A stretch of DNA of 64,000 bases from a virus (lineage: Duplodnaviria; Caudoviricetes). The stretch spans positions 6,748 through 70,747 of the IMG/VR virus record IMGVR_UViG_2933330693_000001. The stretch is one strand, 5' to 3'. Below, piece by piece: positions 46,497 to 63,873 of this stretch (the stretch's first letter is position 1; the number at the start of each line of letters is the position of its first letter). The notes below the pieces were generated by a model. The model did no database searches. It was not told the origin of the DNA and worked only from the letters and a program-made list of their open reading frames with translations. Both the position numbers and the translations under genes were made by a program.

Positions 46497-46697
46497 TCAG
46501 AGGAGGTCGCACACCTCATCGTGGCGGTGGGTCTCCGGATCACCGGACTCGACGTGGTCATAACAGGTGACGCCGGACACCTGCTGGCCGGAGGCGTTCC
46601 ACCACTCGCCGCCCTTCTGCGCGGGGGACCGGCGACCGCAGCACACGCAGTGCTCCACGGCCGGACCAGGGCAGGTCATCATGGTCTGGCTGGGCAT
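46497..46697 (-). CDS. Small Cys/His protein
   Basis: HCVCC..TCYDH. Confidence 0.4.
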   Translation of the reverse strand: MPSQTMMTCPGPAVEHCVCCGRRSPAQKGGEWWNASGQQVSGVTCYDHVESGDPETHRHDEVCDLL

Positions 46698-46730
46698 TGC
46701 CGTCTCCTCTGTGCTCAGCGGTGCTGTCTG

Positions 46731-47198
46731 CTACGCGAGGGCCTTTTCCAGGAGACGGCGGACCGTGGCGGCCCGCTTCTCGCCCGGGAGCGCGGCTGCG
46801 TCCACCCGGGTTTGCAGGTCCTCGCCGAGGCGGATGTTGATCGGCTCGCCGATCTTCGGCCGGCCCGGACCGGACTCCTCTTCCAGCTCGCCGAAGTGCT
46901 TCTCCACGACGTCGTCGTGCTCGCACGTCAGCAGCCACTGGCGGGCCCGGTCGGAGCTGATGAACTCGTGGGTGGTCTCCCGGCCCTGCCACTGCGACCA
47001 GTGCTTTAGGACCCATCGCCCCGACGTGGTCCGGTAGAGGGCCTCGTGCTCGAACTGTCCGCCGGCCACGAGGCTGACGTGGTTGTTGCCGTCCCAGCGG
47101 GTTGCCTCCTCGAACCGTTCGGCCTTCTCGGGGTCGAACCAGCCCTCCAGGATCCGGCCGTCGTACTCATCGAATCGGTAGACGTTCGTGCGTGCCAT
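46731..47198 (-). CDS. Protein with C-terminal ribbon-helix-helix
   Basis: EALYRTTSGRW; GRPKIGEPINIRL..VDAAA..RAATVRRLL. Confidence 0.7.
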   Translation of the reverse strand: MARTNVYRFDEYDGRILEGWFDPEKAERFEEATRWDGNNHVSLVAGGQFEHEALYRTTSGRWVLKHWSQWQGRETTHEFISSDRARQWLLTCEHDDVVEKHFGELEEESGPGRPKIGEPINIRLGEDLQTRVDAAALPGEKRAATVRRLLEKALA

Positions 47199-47211
47199 GA
47201 GCGATGTCCTC

Positions 47212-47928
47212 TCAGATGGTGATGGTGATGACCCAGTGGCCCTGGTCGTTCTTGGTGGCCTGGACCTTGCCTTGGGCGGCCCACCGCTGGACGGTGCGGA
47301 CGGAGACGCCGAGAACGGCGGCGGCCTCGCGGGTGGTGGCTTCCGTCCCCTCGGGCTCGGGGAGCAGGGCGTCGATCTCGGCGATGCGGGCGAGGAGCTG
47401 CTCGCGCTCGGCCAGGAGCGCGTCCACGTCCACGTTGCTGGTCTCGCCGACGATCTCGTAGCTGTCCTCGCGCTCCAGGCTCAGAGTGGCGCGGGGGATG
47501 TCGCGGACCTCTACGATGACGTCGGTGCCGGCGTCGATGTTCGGGTAGCGCATGCTGCCGCCGCTGCTGGCCAGCTTGCCTTCGATGAGGACGACGTTGG
47601 CGGCGAGGCGGACTGCGTCATCGCGTCCGGGGCGGTGGGCGATGCGCTGGCCGGCGAACTTGGCGAAGTTGTCGTACTTGCTGCCCTCGTGGTCGGCGAG
47701 GCGGACCCGGACGGTGACCAGGTCGCCGCTCTCGACGGGGTTGCCGTCCGTGCCGTACACCTGGCGGCACAGGTCGCGAACGCGCTGCTCGTCGCGGGCG
47801 TCGAACGTCCACGCCTTGGCGTAGCCGTCCCACTTGCCGCCGATGGTCTTGGCCTTGGTGACGAAATCGGCGTCGTAGGGGGAGATGACGCTGGTCTTGC
47901 CGTTCTCGGTGGTGACGGTGACGCTCAT
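47212..47928 (-). CDS. Protein with C-terminal HTH
   Basis: SPYDADFVTKAKTIGGKWD; TTREAAAVLGVSVRTVQRWAAQG. Confidence 0.7.
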   Translation of the reverse strand: MSVTVTTENGKTSVISPYDADFVTKAKTIGGKWDGYAKAWTFDARDEQRVRDLCRQVYGTDGNPVESGDLVTVRVRLADHEGSKYDNFAKFAGQRIAHRPGRDDAVRLAANVVLIEGKLASSGGSMRYPNIDAGTDVIVEVRDIPRATLSLEREDSYEIVGETSNVDVDALLAEREQLLARIAEIDALLPEPEGTEATTREAAAVLGVSVRTVQRWAAQGKVQATKNDQGHWVITITI

Positions 47929-47949
47929 CGCCCGACTCCTTAGCGGTGA

Positions 47950-48008
47950 TTTCCGATACCGTTAATGTAGTGGAGCATGAAGCAATAAGCAATACCGTTT
48001 ATTAGATA
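47950..48008 (-). promoter_or_regulatory. AT-rich promoter/operator with direct repeats
   Basis: ATACCGTT at 47956 and 47992; AGCAATA x2 at 47981-47994. Confidence 0.45.
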
Positions 48009-48290
48009 GATGGGGCCCGCCACTCCGTAGGGAGCAGCGGGCCGTTTCGTGCTGTAGATGACCGTGGAGCGGGTAGCGACCCTTTCGGACGATGCGGAGC
48101 ACCTGGCGGGGGCCGTGGCCGCGGTCGAGCACGATCGGCTCGACCTCGATGCCGTCAGGGCCGTACCACCTGCTCACGCCGGAATGCTACGCCGAAACGG
48201 ACACAAAATCCCACACCGGACACGCTGCGGATGGGGTGCCGCTCGTAGCCGCCGGCCCGGCGCGCGCAGTCCACGCCGGGAGCCTGGGCA

Positions 48291-48530
48291 CTACCAGAGG
48301 TAGTGCAGATACACCTGGAATGCGGGCAGCATGAGGCGCATGTCCTTCAGCTCGCCGTTAAGCAGATCGACCACGGCTTCGAGGATCTTCATGCCGTCCG
48401 GGCCGGTGACCTGCACGGAGCGGCGCGAGTGCCGCACGCCGCCCTCGTAGATCCAATACCAGCCGTCCCCATTTTGGACGAGGCGGTATGTGCCCGTCCT
48501 GGGCACCCACCACCCCGAGCTCGGGCTCAC
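48291..48530 (-). CDS. Hypothetical protein
   Basis: Coupled to upstream ORF. Confidence 0.4.
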   Translation of the reverse strand: MSPSSGWWVPRTGTYRLVQNGDGWYWIYEGGVRHSRRSVQVTGPDGMKILEAVVDLLNGELKDMRLMLPAFQVYLHYLW

Positions 48531-48772
48531 GGCCGGTCTCCCGCCGTGAACGGGATCTCGCGCGGCATGTCCCTGGCGTAGACGGCCAGAATCCGCAGCA
48601 TCGCCCCCTTGGCCACGACATCCTGCCGATCGTTGCCGGTGGCGGTGTCGCCGCTCCCCTTGTGACGCAGCCGGTAGCTGCCGTCGCCATCCTCGGTGAC
48701 GTCGCATTCCGGGATCTCCGGGACTGCCGCAGAGGGCTTGTCGTCAGCGGCTGCGCTCGTAGAATCGGCCAT
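48527..48772 (-). CDS. Hypothetical protein
   Basis: GGAGG RBS before ATG; divergent from gntR. Confidence 0.5.
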   Translation of the reverse strand: MADSTSAAADDKPSAAVPEIPECDVTEDGDGSYRLRHKGSGDTATGNDRQDVVAKGAMLRILAVYARDMPREIPFTAGDRP

Positions 48773-48936
48773 ATCGCACCTCCGATGTGCGATCTCGGGC
48801 CCGCAGGCGGTAGCACGCCAGGCGGGCCCTTTCACGTTCAAGGCCGTTTGATCGTATGACGCGGTATGACGCGGTGTACAGCGGCAGGCCGCTACCTGGA
48901 TATATGTGCAGCTCAGGGCCGCTCTAGCGTGGTCGT

Positions 48937-49218
48937 ATGGCTGGTGAAGTGGAGGTCCCGGAGTGGGATCCGGACGCGACGCGGGTCGTCTACGTGTACG
49001 AGGCGCTCGCCGACCACATCGCGCTCCGGATCGAGGCCGGCCACTGGAAGCCGGGCAATCCGCTGCCGGGTGAGCGCGCCTTGTCGGAGGAGTACGGGGT
49101 CGCGCTCGGCACGATCCGGCGCGGCCTGGATGTGCTGCGCGAGCGCGGGCTGGTGGTGACGTTGAAGTCCAAGGGGACGCTCGTGAAGCCGCAGGAGTCG
49201 CCGAGCGGGCAGGAATGA
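48937..49218 (+). CDS. GntR-family winged-helix regulator (HTH only)
   Basis: YEALADHI..WKPGNPLPGERALSEEYGVALGTIRRGL..KGTLV. Confidence 0.88.
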   Translation: MAGEVEVPEWDPDATRVVYVYEALADHIALRIEAGHWKPGNPLPGERALSEEYGVALGTIRRGLDVLRERGLVVTLKSKGTLVKPQESPSGQE

Positions 49219-49220
49219 GT

Positions 49221-49295: not shown

Positions 49296-49688
49296 TCACG
49301 CTTCTCCTCGGGCGGTCGTGAGCTGAAGGACGGGCTTGGCGATGTCGCGGTGCTCAACGTGAACGTGCGCGCCTGCCTCGCGCAGCTCGGCGGCGATCTC
49401 TTCGGCGACCGCGACGGATCGGTGCCGGCCGCCGACGCAGCCCGTGGCGATGCTCACCGGCAGGCCGGCCACGAGCAGCCCGCAGGTGAGGGCGGCGGTG
49501 TGGTCGATCAGCGTGCGGGCGCCGGGGGTGTCGAGGACGTGCTGCCGGACCTGCTCGTTGAGGCCGGTCAGGTAGCGCAGCGCCGGGTCGTGGTGCGGGT
49601 TGCGCAGGTTGTGCCGCAGGTCGAGGGTGATGTGCGCGGTCGGTGCGGGGGCGTGGCCGTACCCGAACGAGCTGATGGTGACGTTCAT
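49296..49688 (-). CDS. Stand-alone RapZ C-terminal-domain protein
   Basis: ISSFGY..LDLR..LRNP..LTG..IATGCVGGRHRSVAVAE. Confidence 0.82.
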   Translation of the reverse strand: MNVTISSFGYGHAPAPTAHITLDLRHNLRNPHHDPALRYLTGLNEQVRQHVLDTPGARTLIDHTAALTCGLLVAGLPVSIATGCVGGRHRSVAVAEEIAAELREAGAHVHVEHRDIAKPVLQLTTARGEA

Positions 49689-49834
49689 CGGCTGGCTCCT
49701 GCCGTGGCGGGCGTGCGCGGCACGTACTCGTTGTTGAGGTCGGCGGCGTAGACGGTGCGGCGGCAGTGCGCGCACCGGTAGACGATCGGCCCCTCGTCGA
49801 GAGGGCTGGCGCAGCGCGGGCAGTTGGGCGTCAT
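49685..49834 (-). CDS. Small Zn-ribbon protein
   Basis: MTPNCPRCASPLDEGPIVYRCAHC; coupled both sides. Confidence 0.55.
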   Translation of the reverse strand: MTPNCPRCASPLDEGPIVYRCAHCRRTVYAADLNNEYVPRTPATAGASR

Positions 49835-50181
49835 CACGCACGCTCCTCACTGATCAGCGCGAACGCCGGCGCGTCGTAGTCGCCGTACATCTCCTGGATC
49901 TCGCCGATCCGTTCCTGCAGCTCCTGCTCGGTGATGGCGTGGCACTCGGCGAGCACGTCGACGATCTCCTGCATCGCGGCGAGCGCATCTATCGAGGGGG
50001 AGCCGAGGTAGGTGCGTGCCGCCGAGATGAGGATCTCGACGAGCAGCCGCTGGTGCTCCTCCCCTTCGACGGTCCGCACCACGACGGAGACTCCCTGGGT
50101 GCGCAGGTGGTCGAGCAGCTCGGACCGGATGAGTCGCGGGCCGGCGGATGGGGGGCTGGTGTTGATGGTGGTTGGCGTCAT
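49834..50181 (-). CDS. Hypothetical protein
   Basis: Coupled; helical. Confidence 0.5.
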   Translation of the reverse strand: MTPTTINTSPPSAGPRLIRSELLDHLRTQGVSVVVRTVEGEEHQRLLVEILISAARTYLGSPSIDALAAMQEIVDVLAECHAITEQELQERIGEIQEMYGDYDAPAFALISEERA

Positions 50182-50460: not shown

Positions 50461-51248
50461 CCGTACGGCGCGCCCGTACGGAGTGGGGTGAGCCTGTACG
50501 GGCATGGCCGTACAGGTCAGCGGACAGCCCTTAGTACGGGCCGCGCGTCGCCCGTACGGGACGCCTCCTCGGCACCCGTACGGGTGGCGTCCGGAGCCTC
50601 CGTACGGGGCTCGTCCGCGACGTCCGTACGGGAGCCCGTACGGACGTCTTGCGCCGCATCCGTACGGGCTGGCGTACGGGTCTCGGAGGCGGCCTGCATG
50701 CGGGGCGTTTCGGCCGCACCTCGGGCGTCCTCGCGGGCATCCTTAACGACCTTCTCGCACCAGGAGCGGCCGTAGCCGGTGCGCGCCATCAACGCCTCGT
50801 AGTCAGGCTTCCAGTCATCCCCCGTCGTCGCGATGTCGCTGGCCAGCTCGGCAACCAGAGCGTCACGGTCGACGGTCGCGGGCGGCGTCTTGACCAACGT
50901 CTTGGGGGGCTTCGGGGCCGTAGTCGCGGTCTTGGCCGCTGCGGCGCGGGCAGGCTTAGGGGCGACCGGGCGGGCGGGTTCGGTCCGGTCCTCATCTCCC
51001 GTACGGGGCTTCTGTGCGGGCTCCTCGGCGCCCGTACGGCGGGCCCGTACGAGGCTGCTGTCGTCCGTACGAGGAGGCTCCGTACGGGGCCCGTACGGGG
51101 GCGGCGTACGGATGGTCTCCGGCGTCCGTACGGGCTCGGGCAGCGCCGGGCGTACGGGCTCCGGAGCGGGGGTCCGTACGGGTTCGGCGACCACCGTCGT
51201 ACGGGTCTCCGGAGCGCTCTGCGTACGGACGGACGCGGGCTCCGTACG
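50461..51248. repeat. Dispersed CGTACG (mostly CCGTACGG) palindromes, about 22 copies in two clusters
   Basis: About 9 copies at 50461-50680 and about 13 at 50999-51248 (hand count). Confidence 0.85.
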
Positions 51249-51716
51249 GCGGGTCTTGCGCCGGCCGAGGGCCTCGCTGATCGCCTCAATCAGGATGATC
51301 AACAGGTGGAGGCTGAGCGCCAACGCCACCGCGGGAATCGCGGAGACGGCGCCCTGCTGCCACCCATCCAGGTCCACCGCAGCCCCCTTGGACTGGGTGG
51401 CGTGCAGGGCGTTGCACGCGATCGAGATGATCACGCCCGTCAAGACGACGAACCAGGCGTAGCCCGTCTTCTTCTCCAGCATCTTCAACACGAGGGCGGC
51501 CATCGTGCCCACCGTCATCGCGCCATCCACACTGACCGGCATCAGCCAAGACAGACCCCGGTCGATGTGGGCGGCTTCCGACACGGCGGTGATGGCGTCG
51601 AAGGACAGGACGAACGCCCCCACCACGACCGCGATCAGCGCAAACACCGCCACGGCGATCATCGTGACGAGCTTGCCGTCGAGCTTCGGCGTCTCGCTGT
51701 GGTCCAGGCTGTTCAC
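50517..51716 (-). CDS. DUF2637/Spd-like membrane protein with repeat-rich tail and HTH-like segment
   Basis: AFVLSFDAI..LSWLMPVSVDG..SIACNALH..VSAIPAVAL; LMARTGYGRSWCEK. Confidence 0.78.
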   Translation of the reverse strand: MNSLDHSETPKLDGKLVTMIAVAVFALIAVVVGAFVLSFDAITAVSEAAHIDRGLSWLMPVSVDGAMTVGTMAALVLKMLEKKTGYAWFVVLTGVIISIACNALHATQSKGAAVDLDGWQQGAVSAIPAVALALSLHLLIILIEAISEALGRRKTRRTEPASVRTQSAPETRTTVVAEPVRTPAPEPVRPALPEPVRTPETIRTPPPYGPRTEPPRTDDSSLVRARRTGAEEPAQKPRTGDEDRTEPARPVAPKPARAAAAKTATTAPKPPKTLVKTPPATVDRDALVAELASDIATTGDDWKPDYEALMARTGYGRSWCEKVVKDAREDARGAAETPRMQAASETRTPARTDAAQDVRTGSRTDVADEPRTEAPDATRTGAEEASRTGDARPVLRAVR

Positions 51717-51754
51717 GGGTATCTCCTCGATGGGATATGCAGGCTGAGCTGGGG

Positions 51755-52255
51755 TTACGCGGGGACGTCGCCGCTGATGAACCGGCCTCGGTAGGGGAGC
51801 TTTCGGCCGGAACGGATGTGGCTGTAGGCGGCGGCGTAGGTGTCGCCGAGCTCGTCCGGGGCGGCCATCAGCCGGTTCGTGGCGTACTCGACGCGGCGCA
51901 GGGCGGCGTACAGGATCTCCAGGGCCGCCTGCAGGGCGACGACGTAGTCGGTGGGCGTGTGCTCGTCGACCAGCGCCAGCCGCTCCTCGCAGTCGGCGAT
52001 CATGCTTCTGATCTGCGACGCTTGGGCGGACAGCTCGGCTTCGAGGTCGACGAGCGCGTTGATGAAGTCGATGTCGTTGCGCCACGGCCCGGTCGCCGTG
52101 CAGGCGGTCATGCCGAGGGTGACGGCGGCGGCGATGACGCTGCGGTAGCTTGCCGCGGCCAGGCCGGTCGCGGCGCACCTGCCGACCATGCTTGTGGCGG
52201 TGTGGGCGTGGTCGGTGGTGTCGGCCAGGGCGACTGCTGCGTTCAGGATGGACAT
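51755..52255 (-). CDS. Helical protein with C-terminal LPYxGR motif
   Basis: Ends TYAAAYSHIRSGRKLPYRGRFISGD; GAGG RBS. Confidence 0.6.
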   Translation of the reverse strand: MSILNAAVALADTTDHAHTATSMVGRCAATGLAAASYRSVIAAAVTLGMTACTATGPWRNDIDFINALVDLEAELSAQASQIRSMIADCEERLALVDEHTPTDYVVALQAALEILYAALRRVEYATNRLMAAPDELGDTYAAAYSHIRSGRKLPYRGRFISGDVPA

Positions 52256-52313
52256 AACTCCTCGATTCCGTAACTCTCCGTAGGTTCGATCAAGCTTTAG
52301 AGGGGCGTTGAAG

Positions 52314-52412
52314 GCGATCGGCTCATCGACGCATCGACTCATCTCCCGGCCCCTATATGGGGGCTCTCAGGGCCGCATGAGCCGATCCCAGATGAGCCGA
52401 TGAGCCGATCCG
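52314..52412. repeat. clt-like repeats downstream of traB-like gene
   Basis: ATGAGCCGAT at 52377, 52392 and 52400; inverted copy at 52317-52326; one-mismatch inverted copy at 52333-52342. Confidence 0.6.
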
Positions 52413-52418
52413 AGACGG

Positions 52419-54479
52419 TCACGCACTGTGCTCGCCCGCTCGGAGGTGCCAGCGGGTCGCCGGCCCCTGTCCACGCGGCTCAATGACGCCCTCGGCGCGC
52501 AACTGGTTCAAGAACCGCACCGTCTGCGCGTCGCTGTAGCCGATCTCCGCAGCGACATCCCGCTTGGCCGCAGCCCCATCGCCGAGCAGCGCGAGAACCC
52601 GGGAGCGCACCTCCGCCGGCACGGGCGATGCCGCCGTCTGCTCGACCTGGTTGAACATCTCCCAGCGCGCGCGCGAGTGCTCGCGTACCTGCGCGGCCTC
52701 CGCCGCCTCCAACGACGGCACCAACCGGAGGGACGCCCTGATGCCCTCCCGCTCGGCCGCCCGGTCATCGGGCGTGGACGGCAGGTCAGGCTGACTCTGC
52801 TCGGCCGGCTCCTCCGCCGCGCCGCTCGCCCCGTCATCCTGCAGCGCGGCGAACAGCTTGCCCAGCTTCGGGTCTGCCAGGACATCCCACTCCAGCGGCG
52901 ACGCCTCCCGTCCCTCGGCGATCCGCGAGACGTCGTCCAGGTCCTTCAGCTTGAAGGTGCGGCCCTTGCTGTTGTTGCCGCTGACGTCGGCGATGCAGAC
53001 AACGCCCGGCTTGCCCTCGCCGTACTTCGTCATGTCAGGCAGTTCCAGGCCGAGCTCGCCGGCGGCGAGCGCCATCTCGTTGCGCCGGGACACCTTGAGG
53101 AACACGAACCTGTCGAGGTTGGCGCGGATGTTGCCGCCGCCCAGCCACTGCGCGCTGCCGCGCTGGCCGACCAGGATGACGCCGACCGACTCCGACCGGC
53201 CCTTGCTGGTGATCGTGGTCAAGGCGGCCTGCGCCCGCTGGGCCAGAGCGTCGCCGCCGGTCACCAGCGCGTCGACCTCGTCCACGACGACGATGACCGC
53301 AGGATGGCCTGGGTGGGGCTGGAAAACGGCGTCGGTGTTGTGCGCGGCGCGGTGCGAGATCAGCGCCGCAGCGAACTCGAGAATCTTGACGGCCTTGGCC
53401 CGCTCCTGCGGCCCGCACGCTGCCGCGCCCAGCGCGCCGGAGTCGCGCCAGCGGCGCATGTCCTTGGCCTTGGACACGTCGATGCCGAACACCAAGGCGT
53501 TGTCGGCCGCGGTCAGCCGCTCCAACACGTTGTTGAGCAGCACCGTCTTGCCGCCACCCTTGATGGCGACGACCATGATGTGCGCTGCGCCGTCCTCGTC
53601 CCACACAACTAGCTCCAGCGGCCGGCCGGTCTCCGGGTCCTGGCCGACGATCGGCGGCTGGCGCACATCGGCGACGTCCGGGAGCGAGATTTCCGGGTTG
53701 GGGTCGAGGAGCGGGTGGGGGATGACGTCGGCCCACGGGTCCTTGAGCCGTAGCGAGATCCACAGTTGGCCGGCGACGCGGCCTTCCTTCACCTGGACGC
53801 GGCCGGTGGAGATGCCGAAGTCCTCGGCGACCCGCTCGGCGAAGGAGCGGGTGACGAATGCGCTGGCGCGCTTGCCGGTGCCGCGCGTGTCCAGCAGCGC
53901 CTGCTCGCCGAGCCGGGTTGGCTCCGCGCTCACTACGCGCGCCCCGTCGATGCCCCAGCCGGCGAAGTACGCCTCCCAGTCGATGCGCGGCACCTCGGGC
54001 GTCACCACCTCGACGGGGCGCGGCTTGAGGCCGACCCGGTGCAGGGCGTAGCCGACGCCGAACGCTCCCAGGTACATCCAGGTGGCCAGCCCGGACGGGC
54101 CCGCAGCGACGCCGGCTTCGGCGGCGGCGGCTAGCCAGGTGCCGGAGGCTGCGGTGGCGGCGGTCGCGCCGACGATGCGTGTGCCCTTCAGCCGGTTCAT
54201 GGCGGTGGCGTAGGTCGCGATCGACCCGGCGATGGTGACCATGCCGATCCCCCACCACGGCAGGTGGGTGGCGTGGGCCAGCGCACCGGCCCCATACAGG
54301 GCGGCGCCGCCCAGGAACGGTGCCCGCTCGGCTGGGGCTGCCCGGAACCACGCGTAGGTGGCGCGGGCGGCGGCTTTGAGGTTGCTGGGGGGCGGCGGCT
54401 CGTCGCTGTTCTGGGGGGCCTCGACCGCGTGGTGGCTGTGCGGCGGGGCGGGGCACCGCTCGGCGGTCGATCGGCTCAC
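52419..54479 (-). CDS. traB: TraB-like FtsK/SpoIIIE translocase
   Basis: N-terminal TM helices; AIKGGGKT Walker A; VIVVVDE Walker B; SKGRS, GQR; C-terminal winged helix. Confidence 0.8.
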   Translation of the reverse strand: MSRSTAERCPAPPHSHHAVEAPQNSDEPPPPSNLKAAARATYAWFRAAPAERAPFLGGAALYGAGALAHATHLPWWGIGMVTIAGSIATYATAMNRLKGTRIVGATAATAASGTWLAAAAEAGVAAGPSGLATWMYLGAFGVGYALHRVGLKPRPVEVVTPEVPRIDWEAYFAGWGIDGARVVSAEPTRLGEQALLDTRGTGKRASAFVTRSFAERVAEDFGISTGRVQVKEGRVAGQLWISLRLKDPWADVIPHPLLDPNPEISLPDVADVRQPPIVGQDPETGRPLELVVWDEDGAAHIMVVAIKGGGKTVLLNNVLERLTAADNALVFGIDVSKAKDMRRWRDSGALGAAACGPQERAKAVKILEFAAALISHRAAHNTDAVFQPHPGHPAVIVVVDEVDALVTGGDALAQRAQAALTTITSKGRSESVGVILVGQRGSAQWLGGGNIRANLDRFVFLKVSRRNEMALAAGELGLELPDMTKYGEGKPGVVCIADVSGNNSKGRTFKLKDLDDVSRIAEGREASPLEWDVLADPKLGKLFAALQDDGASGAAEEPAEQSQPDLPSTPDDRAAEREGIRASLRLVPSLEAAEAAQVREHSRARWEMFNQVEQTAASPVPAEVRSRVLALLGDGAAAKRDVAAEIGYSDAQTVRFLNQLRAEGVIEPRGQGPATRWHLRAGEHSA

Positions 54480-55725: not shown

Positions 55726-55951
55726 CTCCCTCCCCGCGGACGGGCGGCGCCTGCAGCTCGCGGAGGGAGATGACGGCGGTGACGCCGACGGCCACCATCA
55801 GCGCGCCGCCGAGCAGGGCGAGCACCGGGAGGCCGAACAGGTACCGGGCCGCCAGGATGACGATCAGGCTGATCAGGACGTCCATCGTGCTGGGCCGGTT
55901 GTGCCACATGCGGCGAGCGACCTGGCCAGGCAACGGGCGGGGGCGGCTCAT
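55709..55951 (-). CDS. Small two-TM Spd-like protein
   Basis: Two hydrophobic helices. Confidence 0.55.
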   Translation of the reverse strand: MSRPRPLPGQVARRMWHNRPSTMDVLISLIVILAARYLFGLPVLALLGGALMVAVGVTAVISLRELQAPPVRGEGGGADG

Positions 55952-56361
55952 CACATCGCCCCGCTGATGGTCGACCAGCCGGCGGCACTGATCTGGCGGA
56001 CCCACGCCAGCGACCCGCCGGCGGTGGCGTACAGAATCGGGAAGAACGCGATCATGCCGTAGGTGGAGGGTCGGAGCCCGTGGCCGTCGAACACGTCGAT
56101 CGCAACCGCGACGCCGAGCAGGACGACCAGGCCGACCACGATGTGACCAGAGGTGACCTGGCCGATGCTGAAGTCGAGCCCCTTGAGCCAGTCGCCGATG
56201 AACGTGGCCGCGAGTCCGGTCCCGCCGAGGAACATCAGCGCGCAGATGACCCTGTTCAGGACGGCGGACGGGATGCGGCTGAGCTTGCCGCGCTTCTTGT
56301 GGATGAGGATTCCGAGCGCCAGGCACAGCAGCCCGAACGCGATGGCAGGCGTGTCACCCAT
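55951..56361 (-). CDS. Multi-TM Spd-like membrane protein
   Basis: About four TM helices. Confidence 0.6.
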   Translation of the reverse strand: MGDTPAIAFGLLCLALGILIHKKRGKLSRIPSAVLNRVICALMFLGGTGLAATFIGDWLKGLDFSIGQVTSGHIVVGLVVLLGVAVAIDVFDGHGLRPSTYGMIAFFPILYATAGGSLAWVRQISAAGWSTISGAM

Positions 56362-56363: not shown

Positions 56364-56822
56364 TCAGGAACCTCCAGTGATGATCAGGGCGGTGATGAAC
56401 AGCCAGGCGAGGTGCCACGACTGGTCGAGGGCGTACGCGCCGGTCCCGGTCGGGGCGGACTCGGGCATGCCGAGCCGGTAGAAGTCGCCCTTGCCGATCC
56501 GCTCGGCGAGAGCGGCGAGGGTGTGTCGGCGGTCGGCCCAGTAGTGGCTGACGGCGGCGAGGGCGAGTCCGACTGCGGCGGCGATGCCGGAGGGGACCCA
56601 GCCGGTGGCCAGCCACAGCAGCGCGAGGGCGACCAGCTTGGTGAGGGTCAGCGTGATGACGTGGTCGAGGCACGCGAGCCGCCCGGCCCGGCCGGGCGCG
56701 CCCTTGGCCATGGCCTGGCGGTGGGTTTGCGCCCAGTGGTCGCCGACCTGGTGGCCGACGTACAGGGCGACGAAGGTCGCGGAGAACATCATCAGGCTGA
56801 TCTGCGCGTCGGGGGCGATCAC
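56364..56822 (-). CDS. DUF3307-like membrane protein
   Basis: GHQVGDHWAQT..SHYWADRR..LDQSWH. Confidence 0.75.
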   Translation of the reverse strand: MIAPDAQISLMMFSATFVALYVGHQVGDHWAQTHRQAMAKGAPGRAGRLACLDHVITLTLTKLVALALLWLATGWVPSGIAAAVGLALAAVSHYWADRRHTLAALAERIGKGDFYRLGMPESAPTGTGAYALDQSWHLAWLFITALIITGGS

Positions 56823-57151
56823 GACGACACCTCGCTCCAGGTGTGCTGGGGGTTCCGGCCGGTGACGGTGACTGCGGTGCGGGAGAGGTCGTCGCGGGAG
56901 ACGATGTAGCCCATCTGCTGCAGCGTCTGCCGGAGGAGCCCGGCCGGGTATGCCTGGTGGGTGTCCTTGACGTGGATGATGGCGCCGCCGCGGGCGTGGG
57001 TGACGGTCACCTGGGGCGTGTAGCCGGCGAGCGCGGTGGCGTCCATCGCGGCCTGGGCGACGGTCTTGATGTCGTTGACGTCGTCGGCGGTGATGGCGAT
57101 CGGCTGGGCGGCTCGGCTGGTCCAGCCGAGGCCGGGAATGGGGCGGCTCAT
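56819..57151 (-). CDS. Hypothetical protein
   Basis: Coupled ORF. Confidence 0.5.
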   Translation of the reverse strand: MSRPIPGLGWTSRAAQPIAITADDVNDIKTVAQAAMDATALAGYTPQVTVTHARGGAIIHVKDTHQAYPAGLLRQTLQQMGYIVSRDDLSRTAVTVTGRNPQHTWSEVSS

Positions 57152-57660
57152 CGGACGTCGCCCTCCACGATGGCGGCCTGCTGGCGCTGGCTGCGGCGGC
57201 GCCACTGCCACCAGCGCGGCCGGTCCATCACGTCGATGACGTCGCACGCGGCGGAGTCGAACGTCTCGCCGTGCTCGCGGATCGCGTCGCCGATCCCGTC
57301 CAGCCCGTCGCTGACCGTCTTCTCGATCGAGGTCGTCATGCCGGAGAGGGCGGCCTCGATGCGGGCGTTGGACCGCTCGTTGGCGCCGGCCAGGTACTGC
57401 ACCGCGGTGGCGATCTGGGCGAGTTCGGCGCGGCAGGCGGCGGCCTGGCGGACTTCGTGGCGCAGCGCGGCCAGCTGGTCGGTGATTGCCAGCAGCGTGT
57501 GCGCGGTGGCGGCCTGGGCCGCGTACATCGCGGTCGCGGCGTCCTGCTTGTCCAGGGTCCGGTGGTTGTCCTGGTAGTGCTCGGAGAAGTGGCGCCCGTC
57601 GGCCGCGTAGGCCAACAGCGCCCTGGCCTGCTCGGCCGCCGTGGTGGTGGGCGTGCTCAT
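57148..57660 (-). CDS. Hypothetical coiled-coil protein
   Basis: AQAATAHTLLAI; RPRWWQWRR. Confidence 0.55.
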   Translation of the reverse strand: MSTPTTTAAEQARALLAYAADGRHFSEHYQDNHRTLDKQDAATAMYAAQAATAHTLLAITDQLAALRHEVRQAAACRAELAQIATAVQYLAGANERSNARIEAALSGMTTSIEKTVSDGLDGIGDAIREHGETFDSAACDVIDVMDRPRWWQWRRRSQRQQAAIVEGDVR

Positions 57661-57911
57661 TACGCGATCACCGCCGGGTGGACCGAGTAGTGCAGCACCA
57701 CGCCGTCGCGCATGTCCTCGGGGATGACCGCCTGAAGCATGTACGCGAGGAAGTCCAGGTGGCGGGTGCCAGCGGGGACGGTCATCTCGTGGCTGCTGGA
57801 CTTCACGTCCCCGGACCCGTTCTGCATGGTGAGAACCACCAGCAGGCGCCGGGTCGGGGTGGAGCTGGTGGTCGTCGGTGTGGGCGACTTGGTGGCGGTG
57901 TTCTGGCTCAT
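57660..57911 (-). CDS. Hypothetical protein
   Basis: Coupled ORF. Confidence 0.5.
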   Translation of the reverse strand: MSQNTATKSPTPTTTSSTPTRRLLVVLTMQNGSGDVKSSSHEMTVPAGTRHLDFLAYMLQAVIPEDMRDGVVLHYSVHPAVIA

Positions 57912-58014
57912 CAGTCGGACTCCTGGTTCTCGTCGTCGTTGTCGGGTGGGGTCATGGCGGCGATGGCGTCCTGCCAGGTGTTGATCGTGGCGAGGGCCTC
58001 GGTGAGCCGGTCGT

Positions 58015-58203
58015 TCACGTCTTGCGGTCTCGCCGCAGGCGGGGGTTGCGGGAGAGCGTCTCGGCCCGGTTGGCCTCGGCGTGCGATCCCTCTACGTTGC
58101 CGCGCAGCAGCGCCGCGAAGGAGCGGACCCATGCGCCGGCCACACGCTGGAGACCTTCGTCGGTGTAGGCGGGCGGGACGTCGTCGTCAGTCCACTCGGT
58201 CAT
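58015..58203 (-). CDS. Small hypothetical protein
   Basis: MTEWTDDDVPPAY; coupled. Confidence 0.45.
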   Translation of the reverse strand: MTEWTDDDVPPAYTDEGLQRVAGAWVRSFAALLRGNVEGSHAEANRAETLSRNPRLRRDRKT

Positions 58204-58600: not shown

Positions 58601-58900
58601 TCAGACCGCGACCTCCGCGTCCTCGCGGGGAAGCCAGGACGCGGCGTACTCCTCGAAGTCGAGCGACACACCTCGCGCCGCCAGGGCCTTGAATCCCTCG
58701 ACGAACGCGCGCAAGATCTTGCGGTTGCGCCCGAACTTGGCGCCCGGCAGCTCCCCCTTGCGGAGGCCCGAGTACAGGTACTCCTTCGAGAGGCCGAGTT
58801 CTTCCGCCGCGTCTGCAACGGCCATGAACAGTTGGCTCCGGGGCGTGCGCGGCGCGGCCTCCACGGTCTCCGTTGACTGGACGGTCTCGACTGTCTCCAT
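58601..58900 (-). CDS. xis: Excisionase-like HTH protein
   Basis: MAVADAAEELGLSKEYLYSGLRKGELPGAKFGRNRKI; first gene of leftward arm. Confidence 0.72.
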   Translation of the reverse strand: METVETVQSTETVEAAPRTPRSQLFMAVADAAEELGLSKEYLYSGLRKGELPGAKFGRNRKILRAFVEGFKALAARGVSLDFEEYAASWLPREDAEVAV

Positions 58901-59025
58901 ACACCCCATGCTGAGCTATGTGCATATGGTCAGTCAAGGCCAACCGGAGACGGTGAGTGGATTGCTACCAGGACGGTGTGTTCAACTGGTGGCACCATGT
59001 TGTGCCAAGTGCAGTAGGAGCATCG

Positions 59026-59430
59026 GTGACCGACCCGACCGGCCGCACGCTCTACCTCCAGATCGTCGACGACCTCCGGTCACAGATCGCATCCGGAGAA
59101 CTACGGGTAGGCGACCCCATCCCCTCCACCACCGCGCTCCAGAAGCAGTACGGCCACTCCATCACCGTGGTCCGCAAAGCCGTCGAAGTCCTCCGCAACG
59201 AGGGCCTCGTCTTCGGCCAGCCCGGCAAAGCCGTGTACGTCCAAGCCACCCCCGCAAGCGTCGAGGCCGAACGCGTCAGCGTCGAAGACCTCGCCCAGCA
59301 GGTGGCCGACCTCCGGACACAGGTCATGGAACTCCGCGGCACCGTCGAGCAGCTCTACACGCGACTCGGCCACCCGTACCCCAACGACGACGCCGGCCAG
59401 CCCGCGCGCCACCGCAAGACCGGAACGTGA
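59026..59430 (+). CDS. GntR-family repressor (Kor-like), divergent from xis
   Basis: LYLQIVDDLRSQIASGELRVGDPIPST..VVRKAVEVLRNEGLV..PGKAVYV; C-terminal coiled coil. Confidence 0.85.
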   Translation: MTDPTGRTLYLQIVDDLRSQIASGELRVGDPIPSTTALQKQYGHSITVVRKAVEVLRNEGLVFGQPGKAVYVQATPASVEAERVSVEDLAQQVADLRTQVMELRGTVEQLYTRLGHPYPNDDAGQPARHRKTGT

Positions 59431-59456: not shown

Positions 59457-60569
59457 ATGGTCGAACGCAGCAAGGTCGTCGATCTACGCACGCGAACCAC
59501 CTACCGGCCGGACTGCGCCAACCTCGCGCGCAACCGGCTCCTCCTCGCCCGCAAGGGGCTGGGCCTGTCGTACGGCGAGTTCGCCGACCTGATCACCCCC
59601 ATGGTCGGCTGGCCCGTCTCCCCAGACGCCGTCGAGGCGTGGGAGACCAGCCTGGTGCCACCTGGCGACGTGCTCATCGCCGTCAGCACGGTGACCCCCG
59701 CCGCCAGCGACCGGCTCGGGGTGCGCTCTCACAAGTTCATCGCCGCCTACATCGGTGAGGCCATGGCCGCCCGTCTCGCAGAGCAGGCTGCACCGGCCGG
59801 ACAGGACCACCACGCTCTCCCCGTCGAACTGCCGGCGGGGACCTGCCGTCTGCACGTGTGGCCCTACGGCGTCGCGATCCTTCACCTCGTCGAGGACCTC
59901 GACCTGCCGAACATCGCCCACCTGGCCGTGTGGCGCTACCAGTCCTACGAGCACAACCTCGACTGGGCCACCACCTACCTGCGCAGGCTCACTGGCGACG
60001 ACACCTCGGCCGCCTCGTACGTGCTCAGCCTCTACTGGGTCCACGGCCCCACCTGGGTCGGGCAGATGCTCGACACCGCCGCGCGCATCATCTGCTCGCC
60101 GCGCGTCCTCATCGACCGCGACCAGCCTGGCGGAGACGCCTGCCTGGCCGCCGCCGAGCAGGCCGAACGCGAGTTACTCGCCGGAGGCTTCCACCAGCAG
60201 GAGATGCGCTCGTTCGGAGTGGCCGGCGTGTCCGTCGGCTACGCCTCCTGGTCTGGCGTCGCCTACCATCCGCTCGACCCCGCGCGCTGCCTCGCCGAGG
60301 ACGAGCTCGTCGACTGCGAGCTGACGGCGCAAGCGATCTGGGCCTACTGCGAGCACATCAACGGCCAGGTCGAGCAGGGCCACGACCCACATGTCAGCGA
60401 GGAGTACGGGTGGCGGTTCCTGCGCGCGGCCCGCTCGAGGCTGACCAACCCTCGGCCGCGCGAGACGGGGCAGCACCGGTTGATGCGTGACGCGATCGTG
60501 GAGACGAGCGGCATCGCGGGTCATCTTGATCAGGCAATCGAGGCACTTCGAGAGGCAGGCAGGCAGTGA
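59457..60569 (+). CDS. XRE-like HTH fused to an uncharacterised C-terminal domain
   Basis: LLLARKGLGLSYGEFADLI..VEAWET; RSHKF, SYVLSLY, GYASWSGVAY. Confidence 0.65.
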   Translation: MVERSKVVDLRTRTTYRPDCANLARNRLLLARKGLGLSYGEFADLITPMVGWPVSPDAVEAWETSLVPPGDVLIAVSTVTPAASDRLGVRSHKFIAAYIGEAMAARLAEQAAPAGQDHHALPVELPAGTCRLHVWPYGVAILHLVEDLDLPNIAHLAVWRYQSYEHNLDWATTYLRRLTGDDTSAASYVLSLYWVHGPTWVGQMLDTAARIICSPRVLIDRDQPGGDACLAAAEQAERELLAGGFHQQEMRSFGVAGVSVGYASWSGVAYHPLDPARCLAEDELVDCELTAQAIWAYCEHINGQVEQGHDPHVSEEYGWRFLRAARSRLTNPRPRETGQHRLMRDAIVETSGIAGHLDQAIEALREAGRQ

Positions 60570-61135
60570 GCGGATACAGCGACGGCACATCGGTGCTCGT
60601 GGTGGTGGACGTCCAGAATGCTTTCGTCCGGGCCGAGTCGGCCCATGTCGTCCCGGTCATCGTGGACCTGGTCGACCGCTGGCAGGGCGACGTGCTGTTC
60701 ACCCGTTACATCAACTACCCGGGCAGCCCGTTCGAGCGGCTCGTCCGCTGGTCGGCGTGCATGACCTCGCCAGAGATTGACATCGTAGATGAGCTCCAGC
60801 CGTACACGGCCCGCGCCCACGTGATCGACAAGAGGGGGTACGGCCTGTTCGCCGACCCCGCAGGCGCCGCGCTCGTGGCCGAGCGGGGCTGGTGCGACAT
60901 CTACGTGTGCGGCATCGCCACCGAGTCGTGCGTGCTGGCGACCGCGCTCGGCGCATTCGAGGCGGACCTGACGCCGTGGCTGATCGAGGACGCGTCGGCG
61001 TCGCATGCCGGCCGTGATGTGCATGAGGCGGGGGTGCTCGTCACCCGGCGGTTCATCGGCCAAGACCAGATCATTTCGGTGGCGGATGTTCCTGCGGGTC
61101 TGGTGTCGCCGCCGCGTCTGCGGTGTGACGTGTGA
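60566..61135 (+). CDS. Isochorismatase/nicotinamidase-family cysteine hydrolase
   Basis: VVVDVQNAF, IDKRGY, GIATESCV, EDASAS. Confidence 0.88.
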   Translation: MSGYSDGTSVLVVVDVQNAFVRAESAHVVPVIVDLVDRWQGDVLFTRYINYPGSPFERLVRWSACMTSPEIDIVDELQPYTARAHVIDKRGYGLFADPAGAALVAERGWCDIYVCGIATESCVLATALGAFEADLTPWLIEDASASHAGRDVHEAGVLVTRRFIGQDQIISVADVPAGLVSPPRLRCDV

Positions 61136-61333
61136 CCGCACACACGAGCTCTCGGCCTGCCGCTGACCGACCGTAAGAATCATCCTTTTGGAACGTCACA
61201 GTAAGTCCCCGCAGGTGGTGGGCCTGTGATCGCTAACAATCACGAAACTCCACCAAAAAGCCGTACCAACCTGCACAAATGGACATGTTACGTTGTGATA
61301 ACGGTCCCCGCCGTACGTTGCCGAATGCGCCCC

Positions 61334-61804
61334 ATGAGCGTCAAATGCCCTATTGAGGCCATAACCGAAACCGCGTGCGTGGGGCCGCAGCAACCCCAGG
61401 GGGTGGTAGAAATCGCCAACAACGGAGTCGGCGAACGACCGAGCAAGCACGCCGCGGCCTCGGGGGAGGGCCGCGACGCAGTACAGCACCTGACCGACGA
61501 GCAACTCCTCGACCCGAGGTTCATGCGAGGCGTCATCACCAAGATGGCCACCGAACTCGACACCGCCCACAAGCTCATCGGCAGGCTGTTCGATGCGCTC
61601 GACGCCGCACAAGCCAACCACGCGCCACCCGAGGTGCGGCACGCCCTGGCCCGGCGCGGACGGCGCGTCCACTTCGTCACCGAATTCGTCAACGGCCACG
61701 AGGTCACCGTCGGGGTCCTGCCAACCGGCCGCGACGACCCCGCCGACGCCGACCGGCGATGGCAGCGACTCCGCGAGCAGTACAGCGGAGGACAGGACCA
61801 GTGA
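61334..61804 (+). CDS. Hypothetical protein (start uncertain)
   Basis: High-GC3 3' part; coupled to next gene. Confidence 0.45.
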   Translation: MSVKCPIEAITETACVGPQQPQGVVEIANNGVGERPSKHAAASGEGRDAVQHLTDEQLLDPRFMRGVITKMATELDTAHKLIGRLFDALDAAQANHAPPEVRHALARRGRRVHFVTEFVNGHEVTVGVLPTGRDDPADADRRWQRLREQYSGGQDQ

Positions 61805-62622
61805 GCGGGTTACCCGACTGGGAGCTCCGCGAGGCTCCCGACCCCCCATTCGACATCGTCGCCCACTGGGAAGGCGACAAACTGATCATCACGGTCGCTG
61901 CCAGCCTGCAAGGGCTCGCCCGCGAAGACGCCATCGACGGGCTGCTCCGCCGCCACCGGCGCCGCACCTGGAAGGCCGTCTGGCCCATCCCTGCGCTGAT
62001 CGGGGCGTGGGAGTGGACGAACCGCAAGGTGCGGGCGCACGAGCGGGTCGCCTCCGCAGCGGCAGGCACAGCGGCCACCGTCATCGTCGGCGCCGCCGCC
62101 CTCACCGTCACCGGAGCTCTCGACAGCGACGAACGACGAACCCCGTACGCTGGCCCGCCGCCCACCATCATCACCATGACCGTGCATCCCACCCGCAGCG
62201 AGCTGTCCTCTACCGCCCGGCCGGCCACGCCCCGGCCGACCCGGCGGCAAGCTCCCCCGCCGGACGTCGTCGAGACGCGGCGCCCGGCGGGCACACCGCC
62301 GCCCGCCGTGGCCCGCAGCCGGAGAGCCGCAGCCGAGCCCACCCGGCGGCCCCGCCGTTCGGCGCCGGCCAGCGCGCGGCCGACCCGGGACCGGCCTGAG
62401 CCGTTGGCTTCGGCCACCGTGCGGCAGCCGCGCCGGGAGCGGGAGACGGCCATCGCGGTGACCGCCCCGCCCAGCCGCACCGAGCGGCCTACAGTGGACG
62501 CGCGCCCAGCCACGACAGCACCAGCACCCCAGCCCGGGCCCACCGTGGCCGCGGCAGGGTGCGGCGGCATCATCCACGCCCGCGTGGACCCGCTGCTGGA
62601 CGTGTGCGTCCGCCTCCGATAG
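61801..62622 (+). CDS. Membrane protein with Pro/Arg-rich region
   Basis: TM TVIVGAAALTV; C-terminal C..VDPLLDVC. Confidence 0.55.
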   Translation: MSGLPDWELREAPDPPFDIVAHWEGDKLIITVAASLQGLAREDAIDGLLRRHRRRTWKAVWPIPALIGAWEWTNRKVRAHERVASAAAGTAATVIVGAAALTVTGALDSDERRTPYAGPPPTIITMTVHPTRSELSSTARPATPRPTRRQAPPPDVVETRRPAGTPPPAVARSRRAAAEPTRRPRRSAPASARPTRDRPEPLASATVRQPRRERETAIAVTAPPSRTERPTVDARPATTAPAPQPGPTVAAAGCGGIIHARVDPLLDVCVRLR

Positions 62623-62643
62623 CGACACCCTGGAGCAACCCGC

Positions 62644-63873
62644 ATGGCGTACATCCGCCGCCTGCCGAGCGGCCTATGGCAGGCCACCGTCCGCATGCCG
62701 AACGGCCAGCGCACCACCAAGAGCAACAGGCTCAAATCCGTGGTCGAGAAGTGGGCCAAGGCCACCGAAGCCAAATTCGATCAGGGCGACATCCGCGACC
62801 CGAAAGCCGGCCAGATCAAGGTCGCCGACTGGTACGCCCGCTACGCGGCCGCCCGCGTCATCGAAGCCCCAACCCGGGCCAAGAACGACTCGCTGTGGCG
62901 CACCCACTGCAAGGACCGGTGGGGCGACTGGCCCATGCAGGCCGTCCAGCGGGTCGACGCCCAGGCGTGGGTCGGCGACCTGCAGGAGACGCGCCGCGCC
63001 CGCCACCGCGGCCGGCCCGCCGCATCCTTCGACGACCCCGACGAAATCCCGACCCTGTCGGCGGCCACGATCCACGACATCGTGCACCTGATGACCAGCA
63101 TGTACAAGGCGGCCATCAAGCAGGACCCGCCGATCGTGCTCACCAACCCGTTCCTCGACCTGGAGCTGCCGAAGCGTGGCGCCACCCAGGTCGAGTTCTA
63201 CGAGCACGCCGAGGCCGATGCCCTGTACGCGGCCATGGAGCGCCTGCACGGCCCGAAGTGGCGGACCCTGGCCGAGCTCGGCATGGACGTCGGGCTGCGG
63301 CCAGGAGAGATTTACGGGCTGCACGGGCACCGCGTGGACTGGATCCGCGGACTGCTGTCGGTGGTGGACGTGTCCACCCGGCAGGGGCTGCGCGAGTACC
63401 CCAAGAGCATGAAGTCGAACAGGACGGCGCCGGTGCCGCCGCGGACGTTGGAGGGGATGAGCCGGCTGATGCAGGGCCGGCCGCGGACCGCGTTGGTGTT
63501 CACCGCGCCGGAGGGCGGGCCGGTGGACGACGGCGACTTCCGCAACCGGATCTGGTACCCGGCGGTGGATGCGGCCCGGCTGTGCGGCAACCGCTCGCCG
63601 GGGGAGGCCCGCGACGGCGAGGTGTTCGTCGAGGGGGAGTGCGGGGCTGTGTGCGTCAGCCCGACGCATGGGATCCGCCGCTTCTCGCCGAGGATCATGC
63701 GGCACACCGCGGCGTCGTGGCTGGTTCAGGACGGGGTGCCGCTGTACGACGTGCAGGCGCTGCTGGGCCACGAGTCGTTTGAGACCACGCAGCGTTACGC
63801 GCATCTGGCTCCGGACGCCCACGACAAGGTCGTCCAGTCGTGGAAGCGGCGTGCGTCCGCGAACCCTGGTTGA
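62644..63873 (+). CDS. int: Tyrosine integrase
   Basis: AYIRRLPSGLWQA arm-binding N-terminus; GLRPGE, PKS, RIMRHT, LLGH, TTQRY. Confidence 0.93.
   Translation: MAYIRRLPSGLWQATVRMPNGQRTTKSNRLKSVVEKWAKATEAKFDQGDIRDPKAGQIKVADWYARYAAARVIEAPTRAKNDSLWRTHCKDRWGDWPMQAVQRVDAQAWVGDLQETRRARHRGRPAASFDDPDEIPTLSAATIHDIVHLMTSMYKAAIKQDPPIVLTNPFLDLELPKRGATQVEFYEHAEADALYAAMERLHGPKWRTLAELGMDVGLRPGEIYGLHGHRVDWIRGLLSVVDVSTRQGLREYPKSMKSNRTAPVPPRTLEGMSRLMQGRPRTALVFTAPEGGPVDDGDFRNRIWYPAVDAARLCGNRSPGEARDGEVFVEGECGAVCVSPTHGIRRFSPRIMRHTAASWLVQDGVPLYDVQALLGHESFETTQRYAHLAPDAHDKVVQSWKRRASANPG

Follow-up and report, generated by a model that had tools for sequence, protein, structure and literature searches.

The DNA analysed here is a 64,000-nucleotide stretch, the window, of IMG/VR virus record IMGVR_UViG_2933330693_000001 (Duplodnaviria; Caudoviricetes). 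It covers bases 6748–70747 of a 70,747-bp record that is flagged as complete and as having direct terminal repeats, and its G+C content is about 70% throughout. Genes of a temperate siphovirus fill most of it, and between the lysis genes and the right terminal repeat lies a 17.7-kb part (46497–63873), here called the arm, which resembles the transfer module of an AICE, the actinomycete type of integrative and conjugative element. The record as a whole is very probably one fused integrative element. Positions below are those of the window unless they are given as record bases, and relatives are cited where needed by our working handles (G or L with a number).

Ends of the element and the phage genes

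The record begins and ends with the same 48-bp repeat. The right copy, attR, lies at 63953–64000 (minus strand; record 70700–70747), and the identical left copy, attL, at record bases 1–48, 6.7 kb left of the window and at the far end of the phage; it came up in the search for attL that the first-pass annotation of this DNA had proposed. With attL at record base 1, a single att pair encloses both phage and arm. Read on the minus strand, the repeat covers a tRNA-Pro from the anticodon stem (anticodon CGG), by way of the T arm, to the base just after the discriminator, so that by eye, from the letters, we take it to be an att site made of the 3' half of tRNA-Pro(CGG). ARAGORN called no whole tRNA in the record, because the record stops inside the tRNA. 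The only recombinase gene adjoining an att copy is that of a tyrosine integrase (62644–63873, +; Pfam PF00589, 64 bits), and an att-adjacent tyrosine integrase beside a repeat read as a tRNA 3' end is the integration arrangement of AICEs.

The first-pass annotation had seen no att copy between the lysis genes and the arm, and every search agreed. Within the record there is no third copy with up to 10 substitutions allowed, and no direct repeat of 20 bp or more besides the terminal pair. Blastn-short with the att regions gave chance matches of at most 14 bp, among them a 12-bp inverted one at 46295–46306, beyond which the interval 46.25–46.5 kb holds nothing. Neither an att duplication nor a second integrase, the signs of two elements side by side, was found at about 46.3–49 kb.

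The phage early and replication genes begin directly after attL and run on the plus strand through window positions 1–23567, continuing left to record base 49. Pfam-type family matches identify among them a C5 DNA methyltransferase, a DnaN sliding clamp, a 977-aa DUF3987 protein, a YAcAr protein and an Xer-like recombinase; a DUF6197 gene and a gene for a Gp3-like recombination directionality factor (PF18897, E 2e-41; record 3895–5019) lie left of the window. Gp3-like factors work with serine integrases; the serine recombinase family PF07508 has no match anywhere in the record, and PF00589 matches two genes only, at 15.9–16.4 kb and 63.2–63.8 kb. The first of these is the Xer-like tyrosine recombinase gene (15436–16506, +; Phage_integrase plus a SAM-like N-terminal domain), which lies amid the early genes; attL is 22 kb away from it, and the lysis genes end 30 kb away. 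The first-pass annotation had spoken of one shared integrase; the record has this second tyrosine recombinase besides the att-adjacent enzyme, and a role for it in dimer resolution is only a guess. In IMG/VR locus L009 a 39% identical homologue stands just downstream of the ATPase gene. We considered that the Xer-like gene might mark a nested prophage with an att of its own and rejected this, as a comparison of 13–18.9 kb with 45.7–49.3 kb gave no repeat above chance.

A full siphovirus head, tail and lysis block had been described, and PHROGs scans bear this out from terminase to holin (23761–46252, all +). The hallmark set of a temperate siphovirus is intact and in order: TerL (23761–25299), portal (25872–27908), head maturation protease (27915–29375), major head protein (29824–30753), major tail protein (33833–34387), tape measure (35133–38744), minor tail protein (39925–42912), endolysin (44838–45764) and holin (45761–46252). 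The TerL is at most 42% identical to that of any deposited phage. Between the holin gene and the convergent last gene of the arm stands a perfect 16-bp hairpin (46421–46456) that looks like a two-way terminator.

Gene content of the arm

Genes were called by a script based on G+C at third codon positions, and several start codons are uncertain. The GntR-family regulator (58957–59430, +; PF00392, E 5.5e-15) occupies a Kor-like position, divergent from a leftward operon whose first gene (58601–58909, −) encodes an excisionase-family protein of the HTH_17 (helix-turn-helix) type (TIGR01764, E 1e-8; PF12728); a homologue stands at the same place in relative G016. This is the layout that the first-pass annotation had described, a leftward operon opening with an Xis-like gene opposite a GntR repressor. 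This GntR gene is not the only one, however, since Pfam also finds a second, short GntR-type winged-helix regulator at 48937–49218 (+). A 10-bp tandem repeat just upstream of the latter (48854–48873) may be an operator.

All further genes of the operon are on the minus strand. After the excisionase-like gene come four small open reading frames of 73, 83, 170 and 142 aa that match no family (56819–58132), a DUF3307 membrane protein (56364–56822; PF11750) with homologues in G016, G021 and L019, and two small predicted membrane proteins of about 136 and 80 aa with uncertain starts (55709–56361; hydropathy). The next gene, with the working label g70 (54556–55725), encodes 389 aa with an N-terminal membrane anchor, a Cys4 motif and a conserved C-terminal domain. 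A g70 match lies upstream of the ATPase gene in related loci, usually directly; family scans with g70 matched nothing, and the ESM Atlas gave nothing above the level of a lead. It is followed by the gene of the ATPase, an FtsK-fold P-loop protein of 686 aa (52419–54479), and directly downstream by that of a 195-aa protein (51755–52342); in 12 of 12 other stretches a 182/195-aa gene likewise follows the ATPase gene. Then come a DUF2637 membrane protein with a tail rich in Pro, Arg and Thr and an uncertain start (50517–51700; Pfam and hydropathy), of which a longer, 553-aa version (50517–52178) is probably over-extended, and a 115-aa reading frame together with a 184-aa protein with a RapZ C-terminal domain (49296–50181; RapZ-C gene 49296–49850, −; PF22740, E 3e-28), homologues of which occur in the stand-alone G018 element and in G017. 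The last three genes of the arm (46497–47928) encode proteins of 238 aa (with a C-terminal HTH_17 by Pfam), 155 aa and 66 aa, and homologues 79% and 52% identical are found in L009. Between these genes and the short GntR gene is about 1 kb (47929–48936) without a reading frame showing the usual codon-position G+C pattern.

On the other side of the first GntR gene, on the plus strand, lie a 370-aa protein (59457–60569; no family), partial homologues of which stand beside GntR in two IMG/VR relatives, an isochorismatase-family hydrolase that would be cargo (60566–61135; PF00857, E 9e-29), a 192-aa protein of no family (61226–61804), and a Pro/Arg-rich protein of about 273 aa with one predicted membrane helix and an uncertain start (61801–62622; frame plot and hydropathy, no Pfam family). 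The interval 61.1–61.3 kb is also without a confident gene.

The membrane proteins, the DUF2637 protein and the RapZ-C protein had all been proposed earlier; the last two have their Pfam matches, and for several small proteins of the arm a simple hydropathy scan predicts membrane helices, the one feature on which a comparison with Spd proteins is made here. Among the arm proteins scanned there is no Rep family (RepSA, RepAM, prim-pol), as had been stated for RepSA, and no type IV secretion system (T4SS) or relaxase family of Pfam. Replication-type genes occur only in the phage early region.

The ATPase and its relation to TraB

A search of 5.8 billion proteins found 102 relatives of the ATPase, the best of them 72% identical, and all those with a name come from Streptosporangium, Nonomuraea, Microbispora, Planobispora, Sphaerisporangium or Actinomadura. 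Pfam assigns the protein to AAA_22 with weak matches to winged-helix families. When a profile of 30 family members was used, its best solved (PDB) relative was an FtsK motor (E 1.5e-5); these 30 aligned members show no variation at G310 and K311 and have a conserved DE pair in Walker B. The AlphaFold model has a mean predicted local distance difference test score of 84 and consists of five N-terminal helices (residues 33–151), an alpha/beta domain, the P-loop domain and a C-terminal winged helix. In the Foldseek ranking the top matches are FtsK motor domains (E 4e-12; template-modelling score by target 0.62–0.68), followed by the coupling protein TcpA of pCW3 and by EccC. Four of the N-terminal helices have two or fewer charged residues, and their Kyte–Doolittle means of only 1.0–1.3 make them moderately hydrophobic. 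The earlier description of this gene as an FtsK/SpoIIIE ATPase with a transmembrane N-terminus and a winged-helix C-terminus thus stands for the fold and the winged helix, and less well for the N-terminal helices and the Pfam family.

The relation to the TraB proteins of Streptomyces plasmids goes through a third protein. Several of these genomes encode a paralogue of about 605 aa, which the family profile matches with E 1e-33 to 1e-39 and which BLASTP aligns with the ATPase at E 6e-18. This paralogue scores 23.9 bits on FtsK_SpoIIIE and matches 251 plasmid records, 70 of them Streptomyces, with one of those annotated traB. By this transitive link, which the fold supports, the ATPase would be a relative of Streptomyces TraB, though only a remote one, and we take it as a TraB-like candidate translocase of double-stranded DNA. 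The second, shorter FtsK/TraB-like family (about 605–640 aa) was seen in the same genomes at G016:C80 (L079) and on five further contigs; an integrase lies 1.2 kb downstream of the shorter gene at L079, and this family therefore probably sits in ordinary AICEs.

A palindrome array downstream of the ATPase gene

About 1.2–2 kb downstream of the ATPase gene an array of the palindrome CCGTACGG, with the core CGTACG, extends over 50461–51250, that is, over the 3' half of the DUF2637 gene to just past its stop codon. The record has 56 copies of CGTACG, and 22 of them fall within some 780 bp at 50462–51243; the consensus is about the palindrome itself, and the spacings are often 12 or 24 bp. In the DUF2637 gene 15 of the 19 Arg-Thr pairs are spelled CGT-ACG. 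Elsewhere this is outside the eight commonest spellings of 88 Arg-Thr pairs, and CGT makes up 78 of 1578 Arg codons. Five of the 20 copies of CGTACG within the gene are out of frame, and these copies together with the codon bias argue that the constraint acts on the DNA. The homologous genes of G019 and G021 carry an array of the same motif, and other relatives have different short-repeat arrays near the ATPase gene. By analogy with the clt repeats of TraB, and with the 8-bp repeats that RepAM binds according to the consulted part of an AICE review (PMC2440964), the array is a candidate loading (transfer) site or replication iteron site.

Two of the arrays in relatives deserve a description. 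In Actinomadura violacea (L029, ~13209–13899) the position of our array, in the homologue of the DUF2637 gene that lies downstream of the ATPase gene, is taken by another motif, with 17–18 copies of ACCCGAT / CGATCGA. In Microbispora triticiradicis (L022:16524–16761) 12 copies of AGCGTCC lie in about 240 bp inside the 3' end of an 861-aa gene, reminiscent of the repeats that RepAM binds within its own gene.

Stand-alone and fused relatives

A search of IMG/VR with the single ATPase protein gave no close relative, and the family alignment then gave 14 IMG/VR loci and 27 genome loci. From the latter we dropped 14 weak loci (L035–L048; E 4e-9 to 4e-4, non-actinomycete and mostly Bacteroidales), as well as L033 (a 4.5-kb contig) and L034/G026 (4 kb downstream only). 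The 11 actinomycete genome loci and one IMG/VR provirus were extended and compared by tblastn, exact repeats and ARAGORN. Three of the 11 are att-delimited hybrids, two are probable hybrids, three are stand-alone elements (one only probably so) and three have no class.

One stand-alone form is that of M. triticiradicis, where a 44-bp repeat pair, one copy of it inside a tRNA-Val, bounds 16.3 kb with genes for GntR, g70, the ATPase (56% identical), a 182-aa protein, RapZ-C, NUDIX, the 861-aa protein, an 82-aa protein and an integrase. No family was found for the 861-aa gene, which stands at the usual position of Rep and has no match in our record. By its gene order this element is AICE-like in layout. 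Because the core of the arm occurs alone in such a tRNA-Val element, the arm can be called AICE-type, as the first-pass annotation had it, by homology and not by resemblance only. Planobispora rosea (NZ_BMQP01000045.1; L032, L069–L071) has a 15.0-kb stand-alone copy. There the copy is in tandem with a 35.4-kb element of large genes in mixed orientation, and three copies of a 46–47-bp tRNA-Met att are present. N. rhizosphaerae (G021) probably also has a stand-alone form, a call based on a related integrase that adjoins a tRNA-Val. For G020, G021 and G022 att repeats were sought through a nearby tRNA, and none was found in the 10 kb upstream; G020 and G022 accordingly count among the loci without a class.

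It had been suggested to look for the same pairing of structural genes and ATPase in other genomes, and it is found in three of them, with phage and arm each time enclosed by a single att pair. Nonomuraea sp. NPDC050202 carries such an element of 65.6 kb, bounded by two 49-bp tRNA-Met repeats; its one integrase gene adjoins the tRNA. The arm has the excisionase-like gene, g70, the ATPase gene and a weak partial match to the DUF2637 gene; on the other strand are endolysin, tape measure, a head-protease fusion, portal, TerL (phrog_9) and TerS, and there are further genes for a DnaB-like helicase, DnaN (52% identical) and a methyltransferase (69%). The 72.2-kb element of Microbispora sp. CA-102843 is collinear with ours (TerL 42%, holin 49% and ATPase 41% identical). 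It has a 15.3-kb tandem neighbour (NZ_JBNJNF010000001.1, ~2457952–2473345; L027/L052) with its own integrase and GntR but no strong ATPase relative: with a threshold of E 1e-10 the family profile found in this genome only the copy in the hybrid. Internal att copies are expected for accretions, and this neighbour is set off by a third tRNA-Val att copy; accretion in this group therefore leaves an att copy behind. The third element, 39.4 kb in N. bangladeshensis, has a third structural type, with TerL of phrog_2, portal, head, adaptor, tail, primase and repressor genes. The two best-delimited hybrids have one PF00589 match within the att pair.

Fused forms whose ends were not found are probable in M. 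oryzae, which has tail homologues and, on the strand opposite the ATPase gene and 35 kb downstream of it, a phrog_38 TerL, in Sphaerisporangium melleum, and in the IMG/VR provirus G003. Of the 14 IMG/VR records with an ATPase relative, 10 also match TerL or tape measure, as counted with three families only (phrog_38, phrog_2 and PF10145); G002 to G005 matched none of the three, and G003 has a holin homologue. The TerL matches of G009 and G011 have in-frame stops (three TGA in the first; three TGA, one TAG and one TAA in the second), which suggest frameshifts, decay or poor assembly.

In the ATPase tree the fused and the stand-alone forms interleave. Our ATPase pairs with the stand-alone copy of M. 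triticiradicis (support 91/95), and G016 pairs with G019 (100/100), although their phage bodies are unrelated. When drawn as circles, all fused elements have the same order, namely early genes, structural genes, lysis genes, arm and int/attP, with attP on either side of the integrase. As judged from these alignments, a core of g70, the ATPase, the 182/195-aa gene, GntR and RapZ-C is shared by stand-alone AICE-like elements and by prophages, and we conclude that phage and arm form one integrated unit here and that the fusion is a recurrent and maintained state rather than a single accident.

Probably one element, with two possible ways out

The explanation that we rate best, at slightly better than an even chance, is a temperate siphovirus that carries an AICE transfer module between its lysis genes and its integrase and attP. 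Such an element would work in a few steps. The att-adjacent tyrosine integrase and the excisionase-like HTH_17 protein would excise the whole unit from tRNA-Pro, and the phage early region, with its 977-aa DUF3987 protein and DnaN, would supply replication; a shared replicon, part of the original proposal, is suggested by the absence of a Rep gene from the arm. From the circle, the lytic programme would package and release virions. Alternatively, once GntR repression is lifted, the leftward operon would make a membrane-anchored hexameric pump of the 686-aa FtsK-fold protein, with g70, the 195-aa protein, the DUF2637 protein and the small membrane proteins as partners. The winged helix would probably load at the CCGTACGG array, and the pump would move double-stranded DNA of the element into neighbouring hyphae and also across septa, which is what TraB and Spd proteins do for AICEs and for the plasmids of Streptomyces. 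That both routes, virion and contact, actually work is close to a coin toss, perhaps a shade under it. On a wider reading, to which we lean somewhat less, mycelial members of the Streptosporangiaceae carry widespread and undescribed "conjugative temperate phages", each with one genome and one integrase, which leave either as a tailed virion or, without lysis, as double-stranded DNA pumped out by a TraB-like translocase after loading at a CCGTACGG array; the module would then move between AICEs and at least three unrelated structural types.

Several observations weigh against a siphovirus with a working AICE module. On Pfam FtsK_SpoIIIE (PF01580) the ATPase reaches 11.9 bits, below the cut-off of 24, and tblastn with it against 72,556 plasmid and 50,697 phage records gave nothing at E 1e-3. 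It also has a partial PADLOC match to mad8 (E 5e-9; residues 356–466, 110 residues). There is the second tyrosine recombinase inside the phage part, and the arm lacks the NUDIX and Rep genes. Covariation of the winged helix with the repeat motif was looked for and not seen, as G016 shares the wing residues but has other repeats. The identity of the tRNA and the role of the repeat as att are read from the letters of a record that ends at the repeat, with the flanking chromosome out of sight. The count of structural genes in IMG/VR records is biased, because that collection is selected for viral content.

One rival, which we think unlikely, is a fused but half-dead composite, in which a prophage and an AICE came together by accretion at the same tRNA and then lost the att between them, so that one partner is now only cargo; the arm would be the remnant of a defective AICE, or the phage cryptic. 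Accretion at one att is seen among the relatives, with three att copies in both CA-102843 and P. rosea, and accretion and defective AICEs are described for Streptomyces in the consulted part of one paper (PMC9513070). Decay would also fit an arm without the Rep and NUDIX genes of its stand-alone relative, and the two intervals without a confident gene (47929–48936 and 61.1–61.3 kb). Against it, every hybrid examined has full-length versions of the ATPase, g70 and the 195-aa gene, at only 40–56% identity and with Walker motifs invariant across 30 family members, and all phage hallmark genes are intact. A fusion that recurs with three unrelated structural modules is moreover hard to explain by repeated accidental decay.

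An equally improbable rival keeps the arm functional but in the service of the phage, without conjugation, whether in genome movement or segregation in mycelium or spores, in superinfection exclusion or in defence. That relatives of the ATPase share a contig with a TerL or tape-measure match in 10 of 14 IMG/VR records, and in some cases lie only a few kb from TerL, would agree with this, as would the partial mad8 match, and FtsK-fold pumps also act in chromosome segregation and secretion, with EccC among the fold matches here. The core operon is found, however, in elements of 15–16 kb with tRNA att repeats and their own integrase but no virion genes, where a role in serving a phage makes no sense. 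As for defence, the mad8 match covers the Walker B region only and is taken as general P-loop similarity; the MADS set is otherwise missing, as eight of the 10 scanned proteins matched no PADLOC family and a match to mad1 is a 25-residue helix-turn-helix stretch.

Two independent tandem elements, separated by a short cryptic att that would lie where the lysis genes meet the arm, with the Xer-like recombinase serving the phage, are very improbable: some integrases do use cores shorter than our repeat threshold and a second tyrosine recombinase is present, but its gene lies deep in the early region, far from both attL and the lysis genes and with no flanking repeat above chance, the junction holds only the 12-bp inverted match, and the two best-delimited hybrids make do with one PF00589 gene.

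As vehicles of gene transfer, phages and conjugative elements are usually kept apart. If a siphovirus with an AICE module is what this record holds, it would be a living fusion, repeated with different phage bodies, and would offer a testable case in which one element chooses whether to spread by lysis or by contact. It would show the way in which modules pass between AICEs and prophages, point to a new family of double-stranded DNA translocases and a candidate for the site that they recognize, affect the classification of such regions by prophage and ICE finders, and bear on gene flow in antibiotic-producing actinomycetes.

Comparison with known systems

One published parallel is the phage–ICE tandem, in which a conjugative element shares a tRNA or another att site with a prophage and the two can move as a unit; 612 of them, in seven phyla, were described in October 2026 (Huang et al., Sci Adv 2026, PMC13651849). 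According to the main text, they are accretions and, in the authors' statement, not hybrids, with ICEs of the T4SS/relaxase type and separate integrases for phage and ICE (IntICE, IntIPhage, IntEPhage) (PMC13651849). The element described here differs in that a single att pair encloses it, only one integrase adjoins att and its module is of the TraB type, with no T4SS or relaxase family among the arm proteins scanned. The main text gives a count of tandems for Mycobacteroides, and the terms AICE, FtsK, Streptomyces and Actinomycet- are absent from it (PMC13651849). In our literature search no paper dealt with a phage carrying a TraB or AICE module or with a fused phage–AICE form (PMC13651849 being judged by its main text). 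Phage–ICE tandems are thus already in print, and of the fused phage–AICE form we found no description. The search for DUF2637 together with conjugation returned only unrelated work.

For Phi1207.3, a prophage of Streptococcus pyogenes, we know of no FtsK/TraB module. In the consulted part of one paper it is reported to transfer by conjugation (PMC4260502), which makes it, like the element proposed here, a conjugative prophage, but a Firmicute one.

TraB of Streptomyces plasmids (pSVH1, pIJ101 and pJV1 type) is like our ATPase in its predicted FtsK-like fold, its N-terminal helices and its C-terminal winged helix, which in TraB reads 8-bp clt/TRS repeats. An array of an 8-bp motif lies nearby in both cases. 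Unlike the TraB repeats, however, the motif here is palindromic and is found within the second of the genes downstream of the ATPase gene, not at the end of traB, and the relation between the two proteins is transitive only.

AICEs are about 9–24 kb in size, and one of them, pSAM2, has Pif and KorSA. They (pSAM2, SLP1, pMEA300) share with the present element a tyrosine integrase that inserts them into a tRNA gene at its 3' end, a transfer operon with a divergent GntR gene, one single FtsK-like ATPase accompanied by small membrane proteins, and short repeat arrays inside coding sequence; their int/NUDIX/tRNA layout is that of the stand-alone relative of the arm. The present element differs from them in its 70.7 kb with full virion and lysis genes, in an arm without a Rep gene, and in an ATPase that stays below the FtsK_SpoIIIE cut-off and that tblastn did not match directly to plasmid TraB. 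In the consulted parts of two reviews, AICEs are phage-like in integration and plasmid-like in transfer, with virion genes not described (te Poele et al. 2008, PMC2440964; Ghinet et al. 2011, PMC3218068), and the view that their ancestry includes phages as well as plasmids is an old one (PMC2440964).

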